Position numbers and translations under genes: made by a program
The notes under the pieces: model-generated
What the model was told of the DNA's origin: nothing
The model's database searches: none
What the model saw: the letters and a program-made list of their open reading frames with translations, nothing else
Part shown: positions 4,519 through 12,727 of the stretch, one piece after another
Layout of the letters: each line of letters opens with the position of its first letter
How positions within the stretch are numbered: position 1 is the stretch's first letter
Virus record (IMG/VR): IMGVR_UViG_3300025141_000025
Coordinates: 1 to 64,000 of that record
Length of the DNA: 64,000 nt
Direction: 5' to 3' (one strand)
DNA from: a virus

Positions 4519-5856
4519 CTAAATAATCTCTCGATACACGGTTTCACCATTTCTACTTGTTCTTGTTTTTATGTAAGACCTAGTATCTTCAACGTCTCCT
4601 GTAAACGGATTTTTTTCCTGCACAAGGACAGGTATTCTTTGTGGTGTTCCGCTTCCACCACGCTCACTTGAACCGCTAATAAAATTTGCAGGATACGCCA
4701 CCATGTCATTTGTGGCATCACCAATAAGTGCTGTATCCTCCTGTGTTAAATTATTCACACCTGGTCGACGGGGATCAGTTGCCGATTTCGAATTGCCACC
4801 TGCTATCGCCTGGCCAGGCAGTGGAGAATCTATACTTCTGTCATCTAAAACATAATCTTCTTGATTCGCACTCGGAATATTCGAATTTTTTGTCGGAATT
4901 TGAACATCGCCACTTAAAAAATTCATTTCAAACGTAAGCTGAGGCGCTGACAGTGACGAACGCAACCTACTGGGCGAGCCTGTGTATGTTTCGCCTAATA
5001 AATAGCCAGGAACTTTCATGGTAAATGTAGTTCGAATAATTCTTTCATCATCAGTAAAGTCATCAAAGTTATTGCCCGGATCAAAGTTAGAATCTAAATA
5101 ACCGACAAAAGTATAACCCTTTTTTGTCTCCAAACGAAATGTTCTACCAGAATAACTTTGCATATTTGACATTATTGCCATCATGATATCGTTCATTTGT
5201 TGAACATACTGTGCCCAGACAGTTATTTCATAGGTTGCCGTTATAAATTGTACAGGTGGCAATTCAATAACTTCAAAAATATTATTTTTCAGGTCAGGCT
5301 CTAATAGCCTACCCCTTCTTGCGCCCATTGGAACAAGTGAACCATCTCGTCGTGACGCGACTCGGCCCGGTTTGGCATCCTGGTACGACCTAGAACCTGT
5401 TACAATAAACGCTTCCTTTGTTGGAAGGTCATCTGAACTTACCAGGCCCATCTTATTTATTATTCTTTGATACCTTGGATCCCTCTTAGAAAGCTTTTTC
5501 CTAATCACAAGTGGTGCGTTTTGATTGGATGCTAGGCCCATTTCATTTTGTGCCACAATCGATGATCTCATGATTGACAAAACGGGTAATATCAAGGCAT
5601 TGTTTTTATCACGTAAAGGTTTTTTTCTCGCAATTAGCGCAAACCTTTCTCCAGCGGCAAAAACTACAGGTACACGCTGTGACTCTTTCTTGTATTTGTA
5701 GTGAATCGGCAAGTCTTTATCAAACAAATCAAATACAGACCTGTCCATATCCTCAATCGTACAATTCGGGATCTCTAGGGATGTATCAGAAGCATTTTCA
5801 CGGGAGATTGGTATATCACCCCCTCTTTGCGCTTCAATTGTCTCACGTGTGCTCAT
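4519..5856 (-). CDS. Tail terminator / sheath-stabilising protein, T4 gp15-like
   Basis: VPVVFAAGERF...ILPVLSIMRSSI and YEITVWAQYVQQMNDIM resemble gp15 family motifs. Lies between the gp14-like gene and the sheath. Confidence 0.7.
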   Translation of the reverse strand: MSTRETIEAQRGGDIPISRENASDTSLEIPNCTIEDMDRSVFDLFDKDLPIHYKYKKESQRVPVVFAAGERFALIARKKPLRDKNNALILPVLSIMRSSIVAQNEMGLASNQNAPLVIRKKLSKRDPRYQRIINKMGLVSSDDLPTKEAFIVTGSRSYQDAKPGRVASRRDGSLVPMGARRGRLLEPDLKNNIFEVIELPPVQFITATYEITVWAQYVQQMNDIMMAIMSNMQSYSGRTFRLETKKGYTFVGYLDSNFDPGNNFDDFTDDERIIRTTFTMKVPGYLLGETYTGSPSRLRSSLSAPQLTFEMNFLSGDVQIPTKNSNIPSANQEDYVLDDRSIDSPLPGQAIAGGNSKSATDPRRPGVNNLTQEDTALIGDATNDMVAYPANFISGSSERGGSGTPQRIPVLVQEKNPFTGDVEDTRSYIKTRTSRNGETVYREII

Positions 5857-5859
5857 TTA

Positions 5860-6528
5860 TTAGCTCTCGTCATAAAATGATGATTTAATTCTTGCGGGTT
5901 CATCCGCTCGGGGCGAGACCTCAGCAGGACCTGAAATTGGTTTTTCTAGTGTTCCATTTTCCTGCAATGCCCTAACATCTCCTGTTTTGCCCAGCCTATT
6001 TTCTTCAAACCCTCTTTGTTGGACAAACGTATCCTGTACAGCACCTGGATCCGTGTAACTTTCATCGGTTGGCCCATGAGGTGTCAAATCTATTTGTCCC
6101 ATTCTTGCCTGTTTTCCAAGCAGGTGAATTCCCATTGCATGTTCAATTTGGCCATAAATAGTCGAATCGACTTGTTGTTGAATTATTTCAAAAAAAGTTG
6201 CATCATATGAAAAATAATCGCCAATCCTTACATCTATATTCCTGTCAAGCAAATCACGATTATGAAGATATACATCTATGTCGTAAGTGCCTTCAGTACC
6301 AAACCTATTTGTCGATATCCCCTCAGGTTGATATTCGACCCGGGCTTCTATTTCAACTGGAATGTCGAAAACTTTTTCTGGGGCTTCTTCATATACGTCA
6401 TGTATTTTTGTTACATCAGTTCTAACTGCATAATAATAAATTTTTTGCCCAACAACGTCTTTTATGACTTCTTTATTGATGTCATTGATAAAATCGATTT
6501 CGCGTGGTGATAAAAAAAGACGTGACAT
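5860..6528 (-). CDS. Neck / head-closure protein, T4 gp14-like
   Basis: EVIKDVVGQKIYYY...DVYEEAPEKVF...IEARVEY pattern as in gp14. Synteny gp13-gp14-gp15. Confidence 0.75.
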   Translation of the reverse strand: MSRLFLSPREIDFINDINKEVIKDVVGQKIYYYAVRTDVTKIHDVYEEAPEKVFDIPVEIEARVEYQPEGISTNRFGTEGTYDIDVYLHNRDLLDRNIDVRIGDYFSYDATFFEIIQQQVDSTIYGQIEHAMGIHLLGKQARMGQIDLTPHGPTDESYTDPGAVQDTFVQQRGFEENRLGKTGDVRALQENGTLEKPISGPAEVSPRADEPARIKSSFYDES

Positions 6529-7704: not shown

Positions 7705-7719
7705 CGGTCTCTCCATGAC

Positions 7720-7726
7720 TAAATAT
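7720..7726 (-). promoter_or_regulatory. Putative late promoter element ATATTTA upstream of the neck genes
   Basis: Shared intergenic motif (context GATATTTAG). Confidence 0.65.
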
Positions 7727-7746
7727 CTTGAAGTACAAAAATTTTA

Positions 7747-8073
7747 TCAAATGAACTTTTGTGCGAAAAGGGCAGTTGCCATGAGAAACTGGATAACAGC
7801 AAAAATTGTAATTGCTTTTGTCTTAAATTTTTCTAAATCAGCAACTTGTTCTCGTATTTCTCTCATTTGAGTTGGTGAATGTACCTCGTCAACTTTGTCT
7901 TTCCAAGCTTTGAGTTCATCCACCTTATCCTCTCTCACTTGCATCTTAGCAATTTCTTGCTTTACGCCCTGTAATTCATCTTTGAGATTTTCAATACCGT
8001 CAGAAAGAGTCTCAAGTTCCTTAAGCACGAGCTTTGAATACTCATTCCACCCATTTTGATGATCACTCGCCAT
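7747..8073 (-). CDS. Coiled-coil protein with single C-terminal transmembrane helix (holin/XhlA-like architecture)
   Basis: Heptad-rich N-terminus, hydrophobic C-terminal AITIFAVIQFLMATALFA. TAATG overlap with the upstream PAS gene. Function is inference. Confidence 0.55.
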   Translation of the reverse strand: MASDHQNGWNEYSKLVLKELETLSDGIENLKDELQGVKQEIAKMQVREDKVDELKAWKDKVDEVHSPTQMREIREQVADLEKFKTKAITIFAVIQFLMATALFAQKFI

Positions 8074-8627
8074 TACTCGTCCTCACTTGCTAATAACAAT
8101 TGTCTGAGCCTACTCGAACGTAAGGCTTTTTCAGACTTTTGATGAATTATTTTATAGTCTCCCCTTCTTCCACGGGTTGTGTCCCAAATATCTTCTAAGC
8201 ATGAAAGTATCACAGCGTTTGCTGTCACATCCCATGACACACCGGTAACACCACACATTTGACCATTTTCGTCATAACGGGGAAGAAGTTTTACATAAAA
8301 AACAGATTTTTGTGACCTTGCAAAATAGTCAACTTTCTCGCCAAGGAGTGCCTGTTCGTGCTTTTCTATTGAAAGACTTTTGACATCGGGGCACAGAAAC
8401 ATGTTCTCTAGGCAATCAGCCTCACACGCAACAAACCCGTTGCCCCTTTTTGATAAAATAGTTTTTTCTTGAGAAATAGACCACATTGTAACAGGAATGG
8501 GAAAAGTTTCAAAAAACTCCTCAAAAAGCCGCATATCTTTTTTTAACTGATCGTCTCTATCACTTAATTCATTAACCAGATTATGAAGTCTGGTCATGCC
8601 TTCGCTTCTTGGGGTTTTACATTTCAT
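8073..8627 (-). CDS. Stand-alone PAS/PAC-domain protein
   Basis: Coiled-coil lead-in, then LFEEFFETFPIPVTMW (PAS start), HEQALLGE and the PAC signature VKLLPRYDENGQMCGVTGVSWDVT. Confidence 0.8.
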   Translation of the reverse strand: MKCKTPRSEGMTRLHNLVNELSDRDDQLKKDMRLFEEFFETFPIPVTMWSISQEKTILSKRGNGFVACEADCLENMFLCPDVKSLSIEKHEQALLGEKVDYFARSQKSVFYVKLLPRYDENGQMCGVTGVSWDVTANAVILSCLEDIWDTTRGRRGDYKIIHQKSEKALRSSRLRQLLLASEDE

Positions 8628-8911
8628 TATACTAGATGACGGACTGCTTTTGCTAACTCATCAAACCCTGCATTACTAAGTGCCTTTGTGCCACCAGATT
8701 TCGCGAGGCTGGTCAAGTGAAGTCGATCACCCTTGCTAAGCGTTGGATCTTTCTTTCTAAAAATTCTCATAAGTTCTGCCGTAAGATCTAATTTTTTGGC
8801 GGGTGATTTTGCGCTTGAGGTTTTTCTCTCGGCGGTAGCGGTGTTCTTCGTTACTCTTTTTGATTTTGGTGTTTTTGAAACTGTTGTTTTCTTGTTAGAA
8901 CCAATAGCCAT
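8627..8911 (-). CDS. Small Lys/Thr/Ser-rich basic protein, possibly DNA-binding (likely start MAIGSNKK at 8911)
   Basis: Very basic low-complexity N-half. AAGGAG SD before the ATG at 8911. TAATG overlap with the PAS gene. Confidence 0.6.
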   Translation of the reverse strand: MAIGSNKKTTVSKTPKSKRVTKNTATAERKTSSAKSPAKKLDLTAELMRIFRKKDPTLSKGDRLHLTSLAKSGGTKALSNAGFDELAKAVRHLV

Positions 8912-8945
8912 TTTTATCTCCTTCGTGATTATAAACACGTACTAA

Positions 8946-8952
8946 TAACTAT
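8946..8952 (-). promoter_or_regulatory. Putative late promoter element ATAGTTA for the basic protein/PAS/membrane protein unit
   Basis: Shared motif (GATAGTTAT) located just downstream of the capsid-gene terminator. Confidence 0.55.
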
Positions 8953-8988
8953 CTCATATTGAAAAAATCGTTATTTTCAATAGTGAAA

Positions 8989-9030
8989 TTAAAAAGAAAG
9001 GGCCCTTTCAAAAGAAAGGACCCCTTCCCG
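8989..9030 (-). terminator. Rho-independent terminator after the major capsid gene
   Basis: Minus strand GAAGGGGTCCTTTC-TTTT-GAAAGGGCCCTTTC forms a 14-bp stem (two G-U pairs) followed by a T run. Confidence 0.85.
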
Positions 9031-9053: not shown

Positions 9054-10925
9054 TTAGATGATGTTCATATCGAGGCACGTAACAGTACCGTAGAAGTCGG
9101 AACGAACCATCTTCTTACCGTAACGAGTCATGACACCCTTACGCGGGGTGAAGTCCTCAGGAGCGAAGATAGTAGGCGTAACGATAAGCGGTACGTACGG
9201 AGCATAGACGTAGCCAGTCTCAAGGTAGCTTCCGCCCTTGTAGCCGACGAGAACCTTATTTCGTGGGAAGTAAGGATCCTTGTAGACCGTGAAGCGGTTG
9301 CTAAGAGTACCGACCTTGTCAGCACCGATGACCATACCACTGACTTGTCCGTCACCGTCCAACGAGAACGAAGGCTTGAAGTAAACAGAAGCCTCGAGGA
9401 TTGTGGCGACGTCCGGACCGACAACAACAAAGTTTGCCGAACCACGGAGGGTCTTGCGGTGAATCTCATTGGCGACATCGATGATAGTCTCAATGAGGGT
9501 CTCGTACCACTCACGAACGGTACCGGTAAAGTTTGGACCAGGTGCATTGGATCCGCTACGCAGAACCTCAGAACCATTCTTCTTGTTGACAAACTTACCT
9601 GGCGAACGTGACCAGTAGTAGTTAGCAGCACCAGCCTGGGTGAGAAGATCGTTGAGGATCTCGCGATCGAGTTCCAGCGCAATCTGCTCAGAAAGGATCT
9701 GCGTCAACTCAACCTCAGCGTCGAGGCTGTGGTATGCATTGAGATCCTGTGCCAGTTCTGGCGACCAACGAGCACGCAACTTACGAGTCTCAGCAACAAC
9801 AGCAACCGACTCAATCTTGATGTCAATCTCTGGGATTGCTGGGGAAGGAGTTGTGCCGAAATCTGATTCGAAAGATGGAATGACAAGCGTGTCACCCGTA
9901 CCAGTGTTAAGCTGAGCACCTGTGACGTGTGTCACAACCATGGTTCCAGCGGCTGTAGTATCAGCATTTACACCGGAAACGATAAGAAGCAGCGCAGCGT
10001 TTGCATCACCAGGTTGGGTGAGACCGTCAGGAGTAAAAGTACCCCCATCCCATAGACCAATCTGGTTGAGACGACGAACGTTCGCGCATGTGCCATCCTG
10101 AATTGCCTTACCTTCAGCGTCGTTTCCAACCGCTTTGTACGGGCCAACTGCAGGAATTGACATCTCCTTAACAAGTGTTGTGTCAGCCTCACCGAACGCA
10201 GCCGATGTTAGGGAGACAACAACTGCCGAATAAACAGCATTACCTGAACTGGCGCCTGCACCGGCGGAACAATCCTCGATCGCTGTTGTAAGCTGTGGAT
10301 CAAACTGCATCAGCTTGCCGTCAGAACCTGTTGCAAAGAGGTTGTTCCCAATTGCAAACGTTGAAGTTCCAGCGAACGCGCCGGATGCGAGCAATGTTGC
10401 GTCGACCACACCATAAACACGTGAATAACCAGAACCTGCCAAGTCATACTGACCGCCAACACCGAGTGAACCGGAACGGACACCCTTACCTGCTGGTGAG
10501 TTGTAGATTGAAGATCCTGAGTTATAAGGAACAGCCGAACCGGCGTTACCAGCAAGGACACCACCGTAGGTGTAATCCAAGTAAAAGAGCAGACCGGAAG
10601 GAAGGCTCATTGGTTGAATCGATACCAAATCGTTAGCGATCAGGCCACCAAAAACACGACGAACAATTGGAAATGCAATGTTCGTGAAACCACGAAGATC
10701 GCCTGATGAAGTCAGATTTCCGCCACCGGTTGAGAGACTTGAAGCCTCCTTCAACACCTGGCCTGCCTGATTCTCAAGCATGCGGGCCATGTTCTCCCGC
10801 TTTGTGCCGTCAAGGCCTCGAAGCAAACCGGTTCGGTTCCACTTCTCAACCAGCTGCCTGCTTTGCGAACCCAAGTGACGTGCTCGGATTCCTTCAGTCA
10901 GCGTTTCAAGATTAAAGTTAGACAT
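9054..10925 (-). CDS. gp23: Major capsid protein, T4 gp23-like (623 aa)
   Basis: ARMLENQ, FPIVRRVF, VSIQPMSLPSGLLFYL, AETRKLRARWSPELAQDLNAYHSLDAEVEL, YAPYVPL, FTPRKGVMTRYG motifs. Confidence 0.97.
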   Translation of the reverse strand: MSNFNLETLTEGIRARHLGSQSRQLVEKWNRTGLLRGLDGTKRENMARMLENQAGQVLKEASSLSTGGGNLTSSGDLRGFTNIAFPIVRRVFGGLIANDLVSIQPMSLPSGLLFYLDYTYGGVLAGNAGSAVPYNSGSSIYNSPAGKGVRSGSLGVGGQYDLAGSGYSRVYGVVDATLLASGAFAGTSTFAIGNNLFATGSDGKLMQFDPQLTTAIEDCSAGAGASSGNAVYSAVVVSLTSAAFGEADTTLVKEMSIPAVGPYKAVGNDAEGKAIQDGTCANVRRLNQIGLWDGGTFTPDGLTQPGDANAALLLIVSGVNADTTAAGTMVVTHVTGAQLNTGTGDTLVIPSFESDFGTTPSPAIPEIDIKIESVAVVAETRKLRARWSPELAQDLNAYHSLDAEVELTQILSEQIALELDREILNDLLTQAGAANYYWSRSPGKFVNKKNGSEVLRSGSNAPGPNFTGTVREWYETLIETIIDVANEIHRKTLRGSANFVVVGPDVATILEASVYFKPSFSLDGDGQVSGMVIGADKVGTLSNRFTVYKDPYFPRNKVLVGYKGGSYLETGYVYAPYVPLIVTPTIFAPEDFTPRKGVMTRYGKKMVRSDFYGTVTCLDMNII

Positions 10926-10966: not shown

Positions 10967-12679
10967 TTACTTGCCGATACCAGCCAAGACTGCCCATCTA
11001 TCCGTCTCAACGCCATTACTGGAAGGCTGTGCCGACCGGGTTGATCTGGAGGATGATCCGAGAGTCCTTCTAACAGACTCGCTAAGGGTTTTACCACTAC
11101 GGCCTCTCCGTGCGAGTGATCCAGAGAGTGACTTGTAAAGCAGCTTTGCTTCGCGGAGCGTCTTGGCATTATCTAGAGCCTCGACAATTGCCCGCTGTTG
11201 CTTGACAGTCAAATTTTTGTTTTGCAAAAGCTTGTTTGCATAAAGTAATTTTGCGTTGAATAAGTTCATTTCAACTAATTGTTTCTTAAGGGACTGTGCG
11301 GCACGCTTATACTCAGCGGCTTCACGAATCGCACTTTGATTTCTAGAAGGTGATCGTCGGCTTCTTCGGCGACGCTCAGCAATTCTACGAGCACGGCGTC
11401 GGCGACTCTCAGGCATTGCATCACCACCTGCAGCAGGTCCACCAAGGGCTCCTCCTACGTCTGGCGTTGGGGCATCGCCTAGCTCATCCGCGAGTGCGTT
11501 GATCAGGTCATCCTCATCGACATCCACAACCACATCGCCATCGCTGTCACCACCACCAAAGTTATCAAGGACGGAATCATCGACGCCTTCCTCTTGCTCT
11601 CGTAGTTGTCTTCGTCGGCGCATGCGCTTGAGTTCACGACGTAAGGCAGCTTCTGAAATTTCGTACATTTCGCCTTCCTCAAGGTCTAGCTCTTCCTCAT
11701 CGTCGAGCTCCAATTCCTCGTCGCCTTCCTCTTCACCTTCTTCACCTTCTTCAGTGATTTCAAGATCCAAACCTAAGGCAACACCTAGGTCCTCAAGGGC
11801 AGTTGAAGCTGCATCGACATCAACGTCCTCAGCACCTACTTCGACCTCTTCCTCTTCGACGTCGACTTCAACCTCATCGGTTTCCACCTCGTCCTGCTCG
11901 TACATACCTTCTTTCTTCATCTCAGCATCCTCCGCTTCGAAGAGAAAGTCGAAAATGTTCTTCTTATACTTACTTGACATTTCTCTCATCTCCTTTATGG
12001 TAGAATTCAGCCTTTTTTGGAGGCGCTGAGAACCTCTTCCACTTCGTCTCAAATCATTTTGCAAGGAGACCCCCTCCTTGACCAATGAAACAAAACTAAG
12101 TTCTAATCTGCGTTGTTGATTTTTTCTAAGTTTTCCTTCTCTAACAACGCTTAGCACACCACGTAATTTGGAAACCTTCTCTTCCAACCTCGTGATTCGT
12201 GCATTGATCTTTTTATCTGCAATAAAATCATGCTTGACTAATTTTGCAAATGCTTCAGCAATTGCCCTGTCAGTCATTAGGGTTTCATCGTCAGCTTCGT
12301 CCTCTTCGGTTTCAAGCTCAATATTAACATCACCCGATGCATATACGGCAATTGCAGAATCAGCGACGTCGGCAGCTGTGTCCATCATCTGTGAAGTTGT
12401 ACTGTCATCGACATCAACGTCTGGAATGCTATCAACGATTGAATCAAAATCTAGACCATCATCTGTTTGACCAGGCTCCATTAAATCAATGCCTAGTTCT
12501 TCACTGGCATCACCCTCAAGATCATCTTCAAGACCATCTTGTTCAAACAAAATTCGTGCATTAATCATTTGCCGAATTTGTGGCGTAATTGACTCCATAA
12601 TTTTATCGCGTGCCGCTTGTTCCGCTGTTTCTCTAATTTTTTTTGCGTCAAGCAAAGCTTCATCATATATTCTTGACAT
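10967..12679 (-). CDS. Prohead scaffolding/core protein (gp22-like; likely start MSRIYD at 12679)
   Basis: Immediately upstream of the capsid gene. Extremely acidic tracts plus coiled coils, many (L/I)-x-E potential prohead-protease sites, C-terminal MNLFNAKLLYANKL...DRWAVLAGI. GAGG SD. Confidence 0.8.
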   Translation of the reverse strand: MSRIYDEALLDAKKIRETAEQAARDKIMESITPQIRQMINARILFEQDGLEDDLEGDASEELGIDLMEPGQTDDGLDFDSIVDSIPDVDVDDSTTSQMMDTAADVADSAIAVYASGDVNIELETEEDEADDETLMTDRAIAEAFAKLVKHDFIADKKINARITRLEEKVSKLRGVLSVVREGKLRKNQQRRLELSFVSLVKEGVSLQNDLRRSGRGSQRLQKRLNSTIKEMREMSSKYKKNIFDFLFEAEDAEMKKEGMYEQDEVETDEVEVDVEEEEVEVGAEDVDVDAASTALEDLGVALGLDLEITEEGEEGEEEGDEELELDDEEELDLEEGEMYEISEAALRRELKRMRRRRQLREQEEGVDDSVLDNFGGGDSDGDVVVDVDEDDLINALADELGDAPTPDVGGALGGPAAGGDAMPESRRRRARRIAERRRRSRRSPSRNQSAIREAAEYKRAAQSLKKQLVEMNLFNAKLLYANKLLQNKNLTVKQQRAIVEALDNAKTLREAKLLYKSLSGSLARRGRSGKTLSESVRRTLGSSSRSTRSAQPSSNGVETDRWAVLAGIGK

Positions 12680-12695
12680 GCGCACCTCTTGCACG

Positions 12696-12702
12696 TAAGT
12701 AT
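12696..12702 (-). promoter_or_regulatory. Putative late promoter element ATACTTA upstream of scaffold/capsid genes
   Basis: Shared intergenic motif. Confidence 0.65.
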
Positions 12703-12727
12703 TGTTTAACAAGGCAATATTGACTCA

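Follow-up and report, generated by a model that had tools for sequence, protein, structure and literature searches.

We analyzed positions 1 to 64,000 of the record IMGVR_UViG_3300025141_000025 (hereafter, the window means this whole 64-kb stretch), which derives from an uncultured marine T4-like phage and in which the minus strand carries every gene examined. Between the major capsid gene (gp23) and the neck genes lies a unit of three small genes that encode a basic protein, a PAS protein (PAS184), and a coiled-coil membrane protein that is probably tail anchored (TA108), with a TAATG overlap at both junctions. Table 1 shows the coordinates of these genes and of the features around them. The terminator behind the capsid gene, the GATAGTTA motif, and the two TAATG junctions by which a preliminary description had delimited the unit were all confirmed, and GC-rich hairpins of a similar kind follow gp23 in relatives as well. 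Downstream, a gp13-like neck gene (head-tail adaptor in PHROG; PF26809 in relatives) begins 30 bases past TA108; gp14-like and gp15-like genes come next, and then the sheath gene. A search for a terminator between TA108 and gp13 returned none, so transcription probably continues from the unit into gp13. For the gp13-like gene itself, the first ATG lies at 7716, but the start is probably the ATG at 7707, which has a GGAGAG ribosome-binding site and gives the N terminus found in relatives (MTSFLNTL...).

Table 1. Coordinates of the three-gene unit and neighboring features in the window, together with those of a motif-bearing protein from other phage records
Feature	Position	Strand	Basis or remark
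gp23 major capsid gene	9054-10925	-	Pfam Gp23, E 1.6e-76
Intrinsic terminator directly after gp23	8994..9029	-	16-pair stem (7 GC), 4-nt loop, T-run
Late-type promoter-like motif GATAGTTA	8946..8953	-	GATAnTTA pattern; 42 nt upstream of the ATG at 8911
Gene for the 94-aa basic protein	8627..8911	-	ORF; AGGAGA ribosome-binding site
Gene for the 184-aa PAS protein (PAS184)	8073..8627	-	ORF; AF2 model
Gene for the 108-aa coiled-coil membrane protein, probably tail anchored (TA108)	7747..8073	-	ORF; helix/TM analysis
Second promoter-like motif GATATTTA, before the gp13-like neck gene	7720..7727	-	GATAnTTA pattern; downstream edge of the unit
All GATAnTTA copies	4456, 7727, 8953, 12769, 20608, 29919, 40001, 53810	-	Pattern search of the window
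RPTSHGGWP-motif protein	L060 5496-5759; L071 5235-5474; L077 3653-4516		

The unit had been described as having a late-promoter motif of its own, and the pattern search bears this out. The window has eight copies of GATAnTTA on its minus strand and none on its plus strand, and all eight have a gene start within 60 nt downstream. The genes behind them include those for the sheath, gp13, a scaffold-like protein, and a baseplate wedge protein, and a less strict version of the motif is found before the portal gene. Since the motif is common to virion genes, the unit appears to have a promoter of the virion-gene class. The T4 late promoter TATAAATA was rejected as the promoter of the unit, having only three copies in the window, none of them upstream of it; GATAnTTA is a lineage-specific promoter-like motif that differs from the one used by T4. 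A sigma70-like match (ATGAGA-18-TATAAT) overlaps the region of the GATAGTTA motif, and GATAGTTAT-like motifs are found upstream of the PAS gene in many relatives. Judged by its promoter-like motif, the PAS184-TA108 pair in the window phage is probably expressed together with the late genes.

The AF2 model of PAS184 (pLDDT, 83.6) consists of an N-terminal helix (residues 7 to 41), a PAS core (ca. 43 to 134), and three C-terminal helices within residues 135 to 183. Strands were predicted at 46 to 52, 56 to 62, 99 to 104, 109 to 118, and 124 to 133, with a helix at 80 to 94. In VIA comparisons, the top 50 matches of the model were all PAS domains (Z of up to 11.4), aligned with rmsd values of 2.1 to 3.1 Å over 90 to 100 residues, and Foldseek gave 43 matches at an E value of ≤1e-3, with only PAS and LOV domains on top. 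A PAS fold, that is, a five-stranded antiparallel sheet with intervening helices, is thus well supported by the predicted structure. Along similar lines, a phmmer search of 1.8 billion representative proteins reached PAS regions of multi-PAS sensor kinases at E values of 5e-9 to 1e-3, although a sequence-profile search of the PDB returned noise only. The search for the expected match to PAS_4 gave mixed results: the window protein itself has no Pfam match, but 17 of 28 homologues match PAS_4 weakly, below the cutoff (best E value, 3.9e-4), and one (L041) clears it with 23.9 versus 23.1 bits. Another homologue (L091) comes close to PAS_9 (26.7 bits versus a cutoff of 27).

The earlier view of PAS184 as a stand-alone PAS protein also held. 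The chain has only the PAS core and its flanking helices, with no kinase, receiver, HTH, or other output domain, and its close relatives are all 168 to 201 aa long. The sole candidate for a PAS-TA108 fusion, the 293-aa protein P0060, turned out to be a frameshift artifact, with the end of the PAS part out of frame on a contig of 2× coverage where gp14 is split too. The cysteine cluster that had drawn attention (CEADC-x6-C) is present as C68, C72, and C79, but C68 and C72 vary among homologues, in which only C79 and C143 are nearly invariant. Because the cluster is not conserved, there is no indication of an Fe-S or metal site. Similarly, H90 in the F-alpha helix was considered as a heme ligand, a possibility weakened by its replacement with F, K, or C in distant PAS partners. 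In close relatives, on the other hand, H90 and W132-D133, all in the region of the PAS pocket, are invariant, which suggests that the PAS domain is functional where present. The sequences imply no cofactor, and the domain might serve for dimerization only.

Among known structures, the model resembles (VIA Z of 10 to 11.4) both short stand-alone PAS/LOV proteins with flanking helices, such as PpSB2-LOV and SBW25-LOV, and the PAS sensors of histidine kinases (TodS PAS1, SrrB PAS, and ThkA PAS). The five-stranded core, the N-cap helix, and the C-terminal helices are alike in all these matches, even though identity is only 9 to 18%. Like the short stand-alone PAS/LOV proteins, PAS184 has no enzymatic or DNA-binding output in its chain. 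Unlike the LOV proteins, it lacks the LOV cysteine motif and any conserved cofactor ligand, and it is phage encoded and paired with TA108. A phage-encoded PAS protein is already known in VqmA of phage VP882, which is also a structural match (7dwm and 6ide; Z of ca. 9.9). However, VqmA is a quorum-sensing receptor in which the PAS domain is joined to an HTH DNA-binding output, while PAS184 has no output and has a membrane partner instead.

That partner was correctly anticipated as a coiled-coil protein with one C-terminal TM helix. The TA108 model has two long helices (5 to 64 and 67 to 107) with a break at S66-P67, and the TM segment (87 to 105; Kyte-Doolittle 19-residue maximum of 1.91) is followed by only three residues, KFI. 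Since lysines precede the TM segment, TA108 is likely a tail-anchored protein with a cytoplasmic N terminus. Its invariant features are the N-terminal NGWNEYSxLVLKEL, the W57-K58 pair, the SP(T/S)Q motif, and, within the TM segment, T89, F91, A92, Q95, and M98. The family comprises at least 1,372 clusters at 90% identity and is found on 345 IMG/VR contigs, mostly marine. Neither TA108 nor its relatives belong to a Pfam or PHROG family; the Pfam search gave only generic coiled-coil families (FlgM, CENP-F, ZapB, DivIC, and DUF2730), all below the cutoff, and Foldseek found no match to the TA108 model in the PDB. In the cultured phages of INPHARED, tblastn with PAS184 and TA108 found nothing, and blastn with the whole region gave one match, of 227 nt, in the capsid gene.

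We then surveyed 90 loci, in 80 of which the gene upstream of TA108 could be resolved. A PAS-type partner (130 to 213 aa, matching the PAS profile) precedes TA108 in 54 of these 80 loci, and a short helical partner of 72 to 93 aa without a PAS core does so in 24. The two exceptions are an overextended ORF call (L061) and a locus with a 416-aa gene between the short partner and TA108 (L077), the only one examined in which the two genes neither adjoin nor overlap. Where a PAS gene could be evaluated, TA108 directly follows it in all cases (45/45), with gaps of −29 to +4 nt. The basic protein (pI 10.8, lysine rich, 22 K+R), small and basic as first described, has recognizable relatives in only 3 of the 90 loci (L013, L018, and L070). 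It has no family in Pfam or PHROG, and its best score in the Atlas was 0.78, with no useful neighbor. The co-conservation proposed for the trio therefore holds for PAS184 and TA108 but not for the basic protein: the conserved unit is a two-gene pair, partner plus TA108, and the 94-aa protein appears, from its sequence relatives, to be variable cargo outside the conserved module. The gene directly upstream of the adaptor gene in three non-T4 lineages encodes a lysine-rich protein with a conserved RPTSHGGWP...TPV..QI..YL..MGL motif (Table 1); this protein is not homologous to the 94-aa protein.

The two types of partner have their N-terminal helix in common (hhalign probability of 72%; E value, 3e-5), and in the widest alignment of the partner family, only L17, L21, D25, and P43 stay conserved. 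Given that the short partners keep this helix without the PAS core, the partner appears to be a helical adaptor into which the PAS core is optionally inserted. TA108, on the other hand, keeps its N-terminal motif invariant while the partner diverges to 21 to 30% identity or drops the PAS core. Complex prediction for PAS184 and TA108 from two alignments gave a score of 0.00 which, obtained without controls, weighs neither way.

These features bear on the proposal that PAS184 is a decoy, forming heterodimers with PAS domains of host kinases and so jamming two-component signaling. A stand-alone PAS domain without output, with weak sequence similarity to those of sensor kinases, is what a decoy would look like. 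However, the gene is strictly linked to that of a membrane partner encoded by the phage, PAS-less partners exist, and the nearest cellular PAS domains are only 23 to 33% identical and come from many different architectures. We consider the decoy role extremely improbable, above all given the obligate partner.

The interpretation to which we give about an even chance is that the pair forms a split, membrane-tethered module of sensor and effector, made from two translationally coupled genes. The first gene would supply a cytoplasmic helical adaptor, carrying a PAS sensor domain in the window phage, and TA108 would be the constant effector, a tail-anchored coiled-coil protein at the inner membrane. 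The two proteins would associate on the cytoplasmic side of that membrane, most likely through the conserved N-terminal helix of the adaptor (LxKLRxLxxxL...DRD..LK), since this is the sole part common to PAS and PAS-less partners. The invariant motif at the N terminus of TA108 and the conserved polar character of its TM segment (Q95) suggest either a specific target or self-assembly within the membrane. As an optional regulatory insert, the PAS domain would let the effector respond to a ligand or redox cue inside the cell. A sensor tied to a membrane effector had already been proposed in the preliminary description. The tight coupling of the genes makes this reasonable, but sensing is not essential to the module, because the PAS core is absent from 24 of the 80 loci.

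In order to see which event such a module might control, we compared its genomic surroundings. The pair is found in at least four unrelated phage backgrounds. In the T4-like lineage, it lies between gp23 and gp13; in a group with ThyX and an amidase, it comes after ThyX; elsewhere, it sits between RNR/ClpP and HhH-GPD/Nei or adjoins an Fe-SOD gene on a freshwater-type contig. The pair is also found, with a more canonical PAS partner, on an AT-rich contig of a Prochlorococcus single-cell assembly. This 32-kb contig, from the assembly of Prochlorococcus sp. AG-409-L21, encodes a PAS protein of 138 aa and a TA108 of 116 aa (L091, 5546 to 6309). It may belong to an infecting phage and so hint at the host of that lineage. 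No functional neighbor accompanies the pair consistently across backgrounds.

In all of 33 distinct T4-like arrangements, the pair lies between gp23 and gp13, although the spacing varies (307 to 3,051 nt from gp23 to TA108 and 12 to 1,464 nt from TA108 to gp13). The cargo around the pair is variable as well, from 0 to ca. 2.4 kb upstream and from 0 to 1.4 kb downstream. In L001, a 2OG-Fe(II) oxygenase-like gene (5392 to 5958) and two unknown genes fill the interval between gp23 and the PAS gene, which marks this interval as a cargo site. Its constant position, together with the promoter motif that it has in common with virion genes, would suit a pair that helps in the assembly of the head or neck at the inner membrane, by analogy with T4 gp40 or with membrane-initiated prohead assembly. 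Against this, in the other backgrounds the pair lies beside ThyX, RNR, ClpP, Nei, or Fe-SOD genes with no structural genes nearby, the interval that it occupies in T4-like phages holds variable cargo, and it is hard to see what a PAS sensor would do in assembly. An assembly helper is therefore very unlikely in our opinion.

Lysis timing had been the membrane event named as an example at first, with TA108 seen as holin-like. According to this explanation, TA108 would be a holin-like or accessory protein similar to XhlA, and the PAS protein a cytoplasmic antiholin-like regulator, analogous to RIII of T4, that delays or triggers lysis according to the state of the host. The late-type promoter motif and the small single-TM protein with a conserved polar TM segment are consistent with it. 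In addition, the nearest named cluster to TA108 in the ESM Atlas is XhlA (score of 0.92, with 174 of 256 features shared), a protein of PBSX-type lysis modules of Bacillus that has the same size and layout as TA108 (ca. 70 to 110 aa, a coiled coil followed by a C-terminal TM segment). XhlA adjoins the holin XhlB and the amidase XlyA. TA108, unlike XhlA, is not found beside lysis genes and is not matched by the XhlA HMM. At an E value of ≤10, XhlA (PF10779) was absent among the best 25 of 28 families listed for the window TA108 and among the best 25 of 104 families listed across 17 members, and a six-frame search of three TA108-bearing phage records with its HMM hit only unrelated places, below the cutoff. 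Nor does TA108 fit the usual picture of a holin: no holin model matched, the TM segment is at the extreme C terminus, and the charged cytoplasmic tail that follows the TM segment in holins has no counterpart in the three residues of TA108.

What the pair would have in common with the T4 holin T and its cytoplasmic antiholin RIII (and the periplasmic RI) is the logic: in a T4-like phage, a small, soluble helical protein would regulate a membrane protein with one TM segment by way of its cytoplasmic part. The size and helical content of RIII resemble those of the short partners of 72 to 93 aa. However, neither T nor RIII has sequence or profile similarity to the pair (PHROGs and Pfam), and the layout of TA108 is the opposite of that of T, with the bulk of the protein cytoplasmic and the TM segment C-terminal. 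There is also no link to an endolysin.

Gene context gives no support to a link between the pair and lysis. An endolysin-type protein (Amidase_2 plus PG_binding_1) is encoded 1.6 to 2.7 kb upstream of the pair, on the same strand and with genes between them, in the ThyX lineage only, and this speaks for lysis. Proteins of this type are encoded ca. 10, 60, and 75 kb from the pair in three other lineages (L071/L075, L060, and L077) and were not found in four fragmentary records. No peptidoglycan hydrolase directly adjoins the pair in any locus examined. The close relative G001, rated complete, has no match for Amidase_2, Phage_lysozyme, or SLT and only one subthreshold match for Peptidase_M15_4, far from the pair. 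In the T4-like lineage, the neighbors are gp23 and gp13 and not an endolysin as in a lysis cassette, and outside the T4-like backgrounds, the pair is surrounded by genes for replication and nucleotide metabolism. Taking both sides together, we regard lysis timing by an XhlA-like TA108 and an RIII-like regulator as unlikely. In the ThyX-type L069 lineage only, ThyX and the adaptor gene are separated by three small ORFs (5090 to 5698); one encodes a multi-TM protein of 76 aa and another an 81-aa protein with a TM segment and a possible lipobox, and these two could be lysis-type membrane proteins.

The strict conservation of the TA108 N-terminal motif, set against a partner that diverges or loses its PAS core, would also fit a conserved host target. 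TA108 could thus bind a host membrane or cytoplasmic machine in the course of host takeover or exclusion, without true sensing, with a structural PAS domain and a partner that is only a chaperone or dimerization adaptor. Candidate targets would be division, ribosome tethering, transport, or superinfection exclusion. The behavior of the pair as an autonomous cassette in variable regions agrees with this. So does the likeness of TA108, in size and architecture, to ElaB, YqjD, and YgaM (DUF883), which are tail-anchored, ribosome-associated proteins of the Escherichia coli inner membrane with ca. 100 to 110 aa and a helical cytoplasmic domain. We know of no PAS partner for these proteins. However, the DUF883 HMM (PF05957), run on five phage records at an E value of ≤10, gave no match on TA108, and the residues invariant in the PAS domain of close relatives suggest that it is functional. 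Takeover without sensing is, in our estimate, quite unlikely.

We therefore return to the sensor-effector module and to the event that it may control. Given this module, lysis timing or permeabilization is a somewhat doubtful outcome, while control of another host membrane process (division, energy state, or exclusion) is possible, although still short of an even chance. The latter is at least as likely as lysis timing, since the context does not favor lysis. In its most specific form, the module would be a mobile and widespread signal-gated membrane switch, in which the PAS adaptor reads a metabolite or redox state and holds or releases TA108 for an event such as lysis; as a complete account, we find this doubtful. 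Were it true, abundant marine phages would have a counterpart of holin-antiholin control that is regulated from the cytoplasm. More generally, if the pair reads host physiology and acts at the membrane, it would represent a new regulatory layer in abundant ocean viruses and offer a compact pair of sensor and effector to study. A literature search (PAS with phage or holin; tail-anchored phage proteins) found no description of such a pair, which is thus a widespread phage module undescribed in the literature searched. Whatever its function, the strict pairing and the optional PAS insert allow clear and cheap experiments.

Some features of the capsid region were also recorded. Base composition changes sharply at the highly expressed capsid gene, whose GC content is ca. 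52% compared with 35 to 40% in the genes on either side. Upstream of gp23, a very acidic, repeat-rich protein of 581 aa (10967 to 12712) without a Pfam or PHROG match is kept in relatives and is probably the scaffold. Two tandem genes of the gp23 family precede the PAS-TA108 pair in L009, L020, L031, and L037, while the window has one. Finally, two relatives (L001, 378 to 626, and L006, 1986 to 2210) carry a gene for ribosomal protein S21 (PF01165) immediately upstream of those for the scaffold and the capsid.
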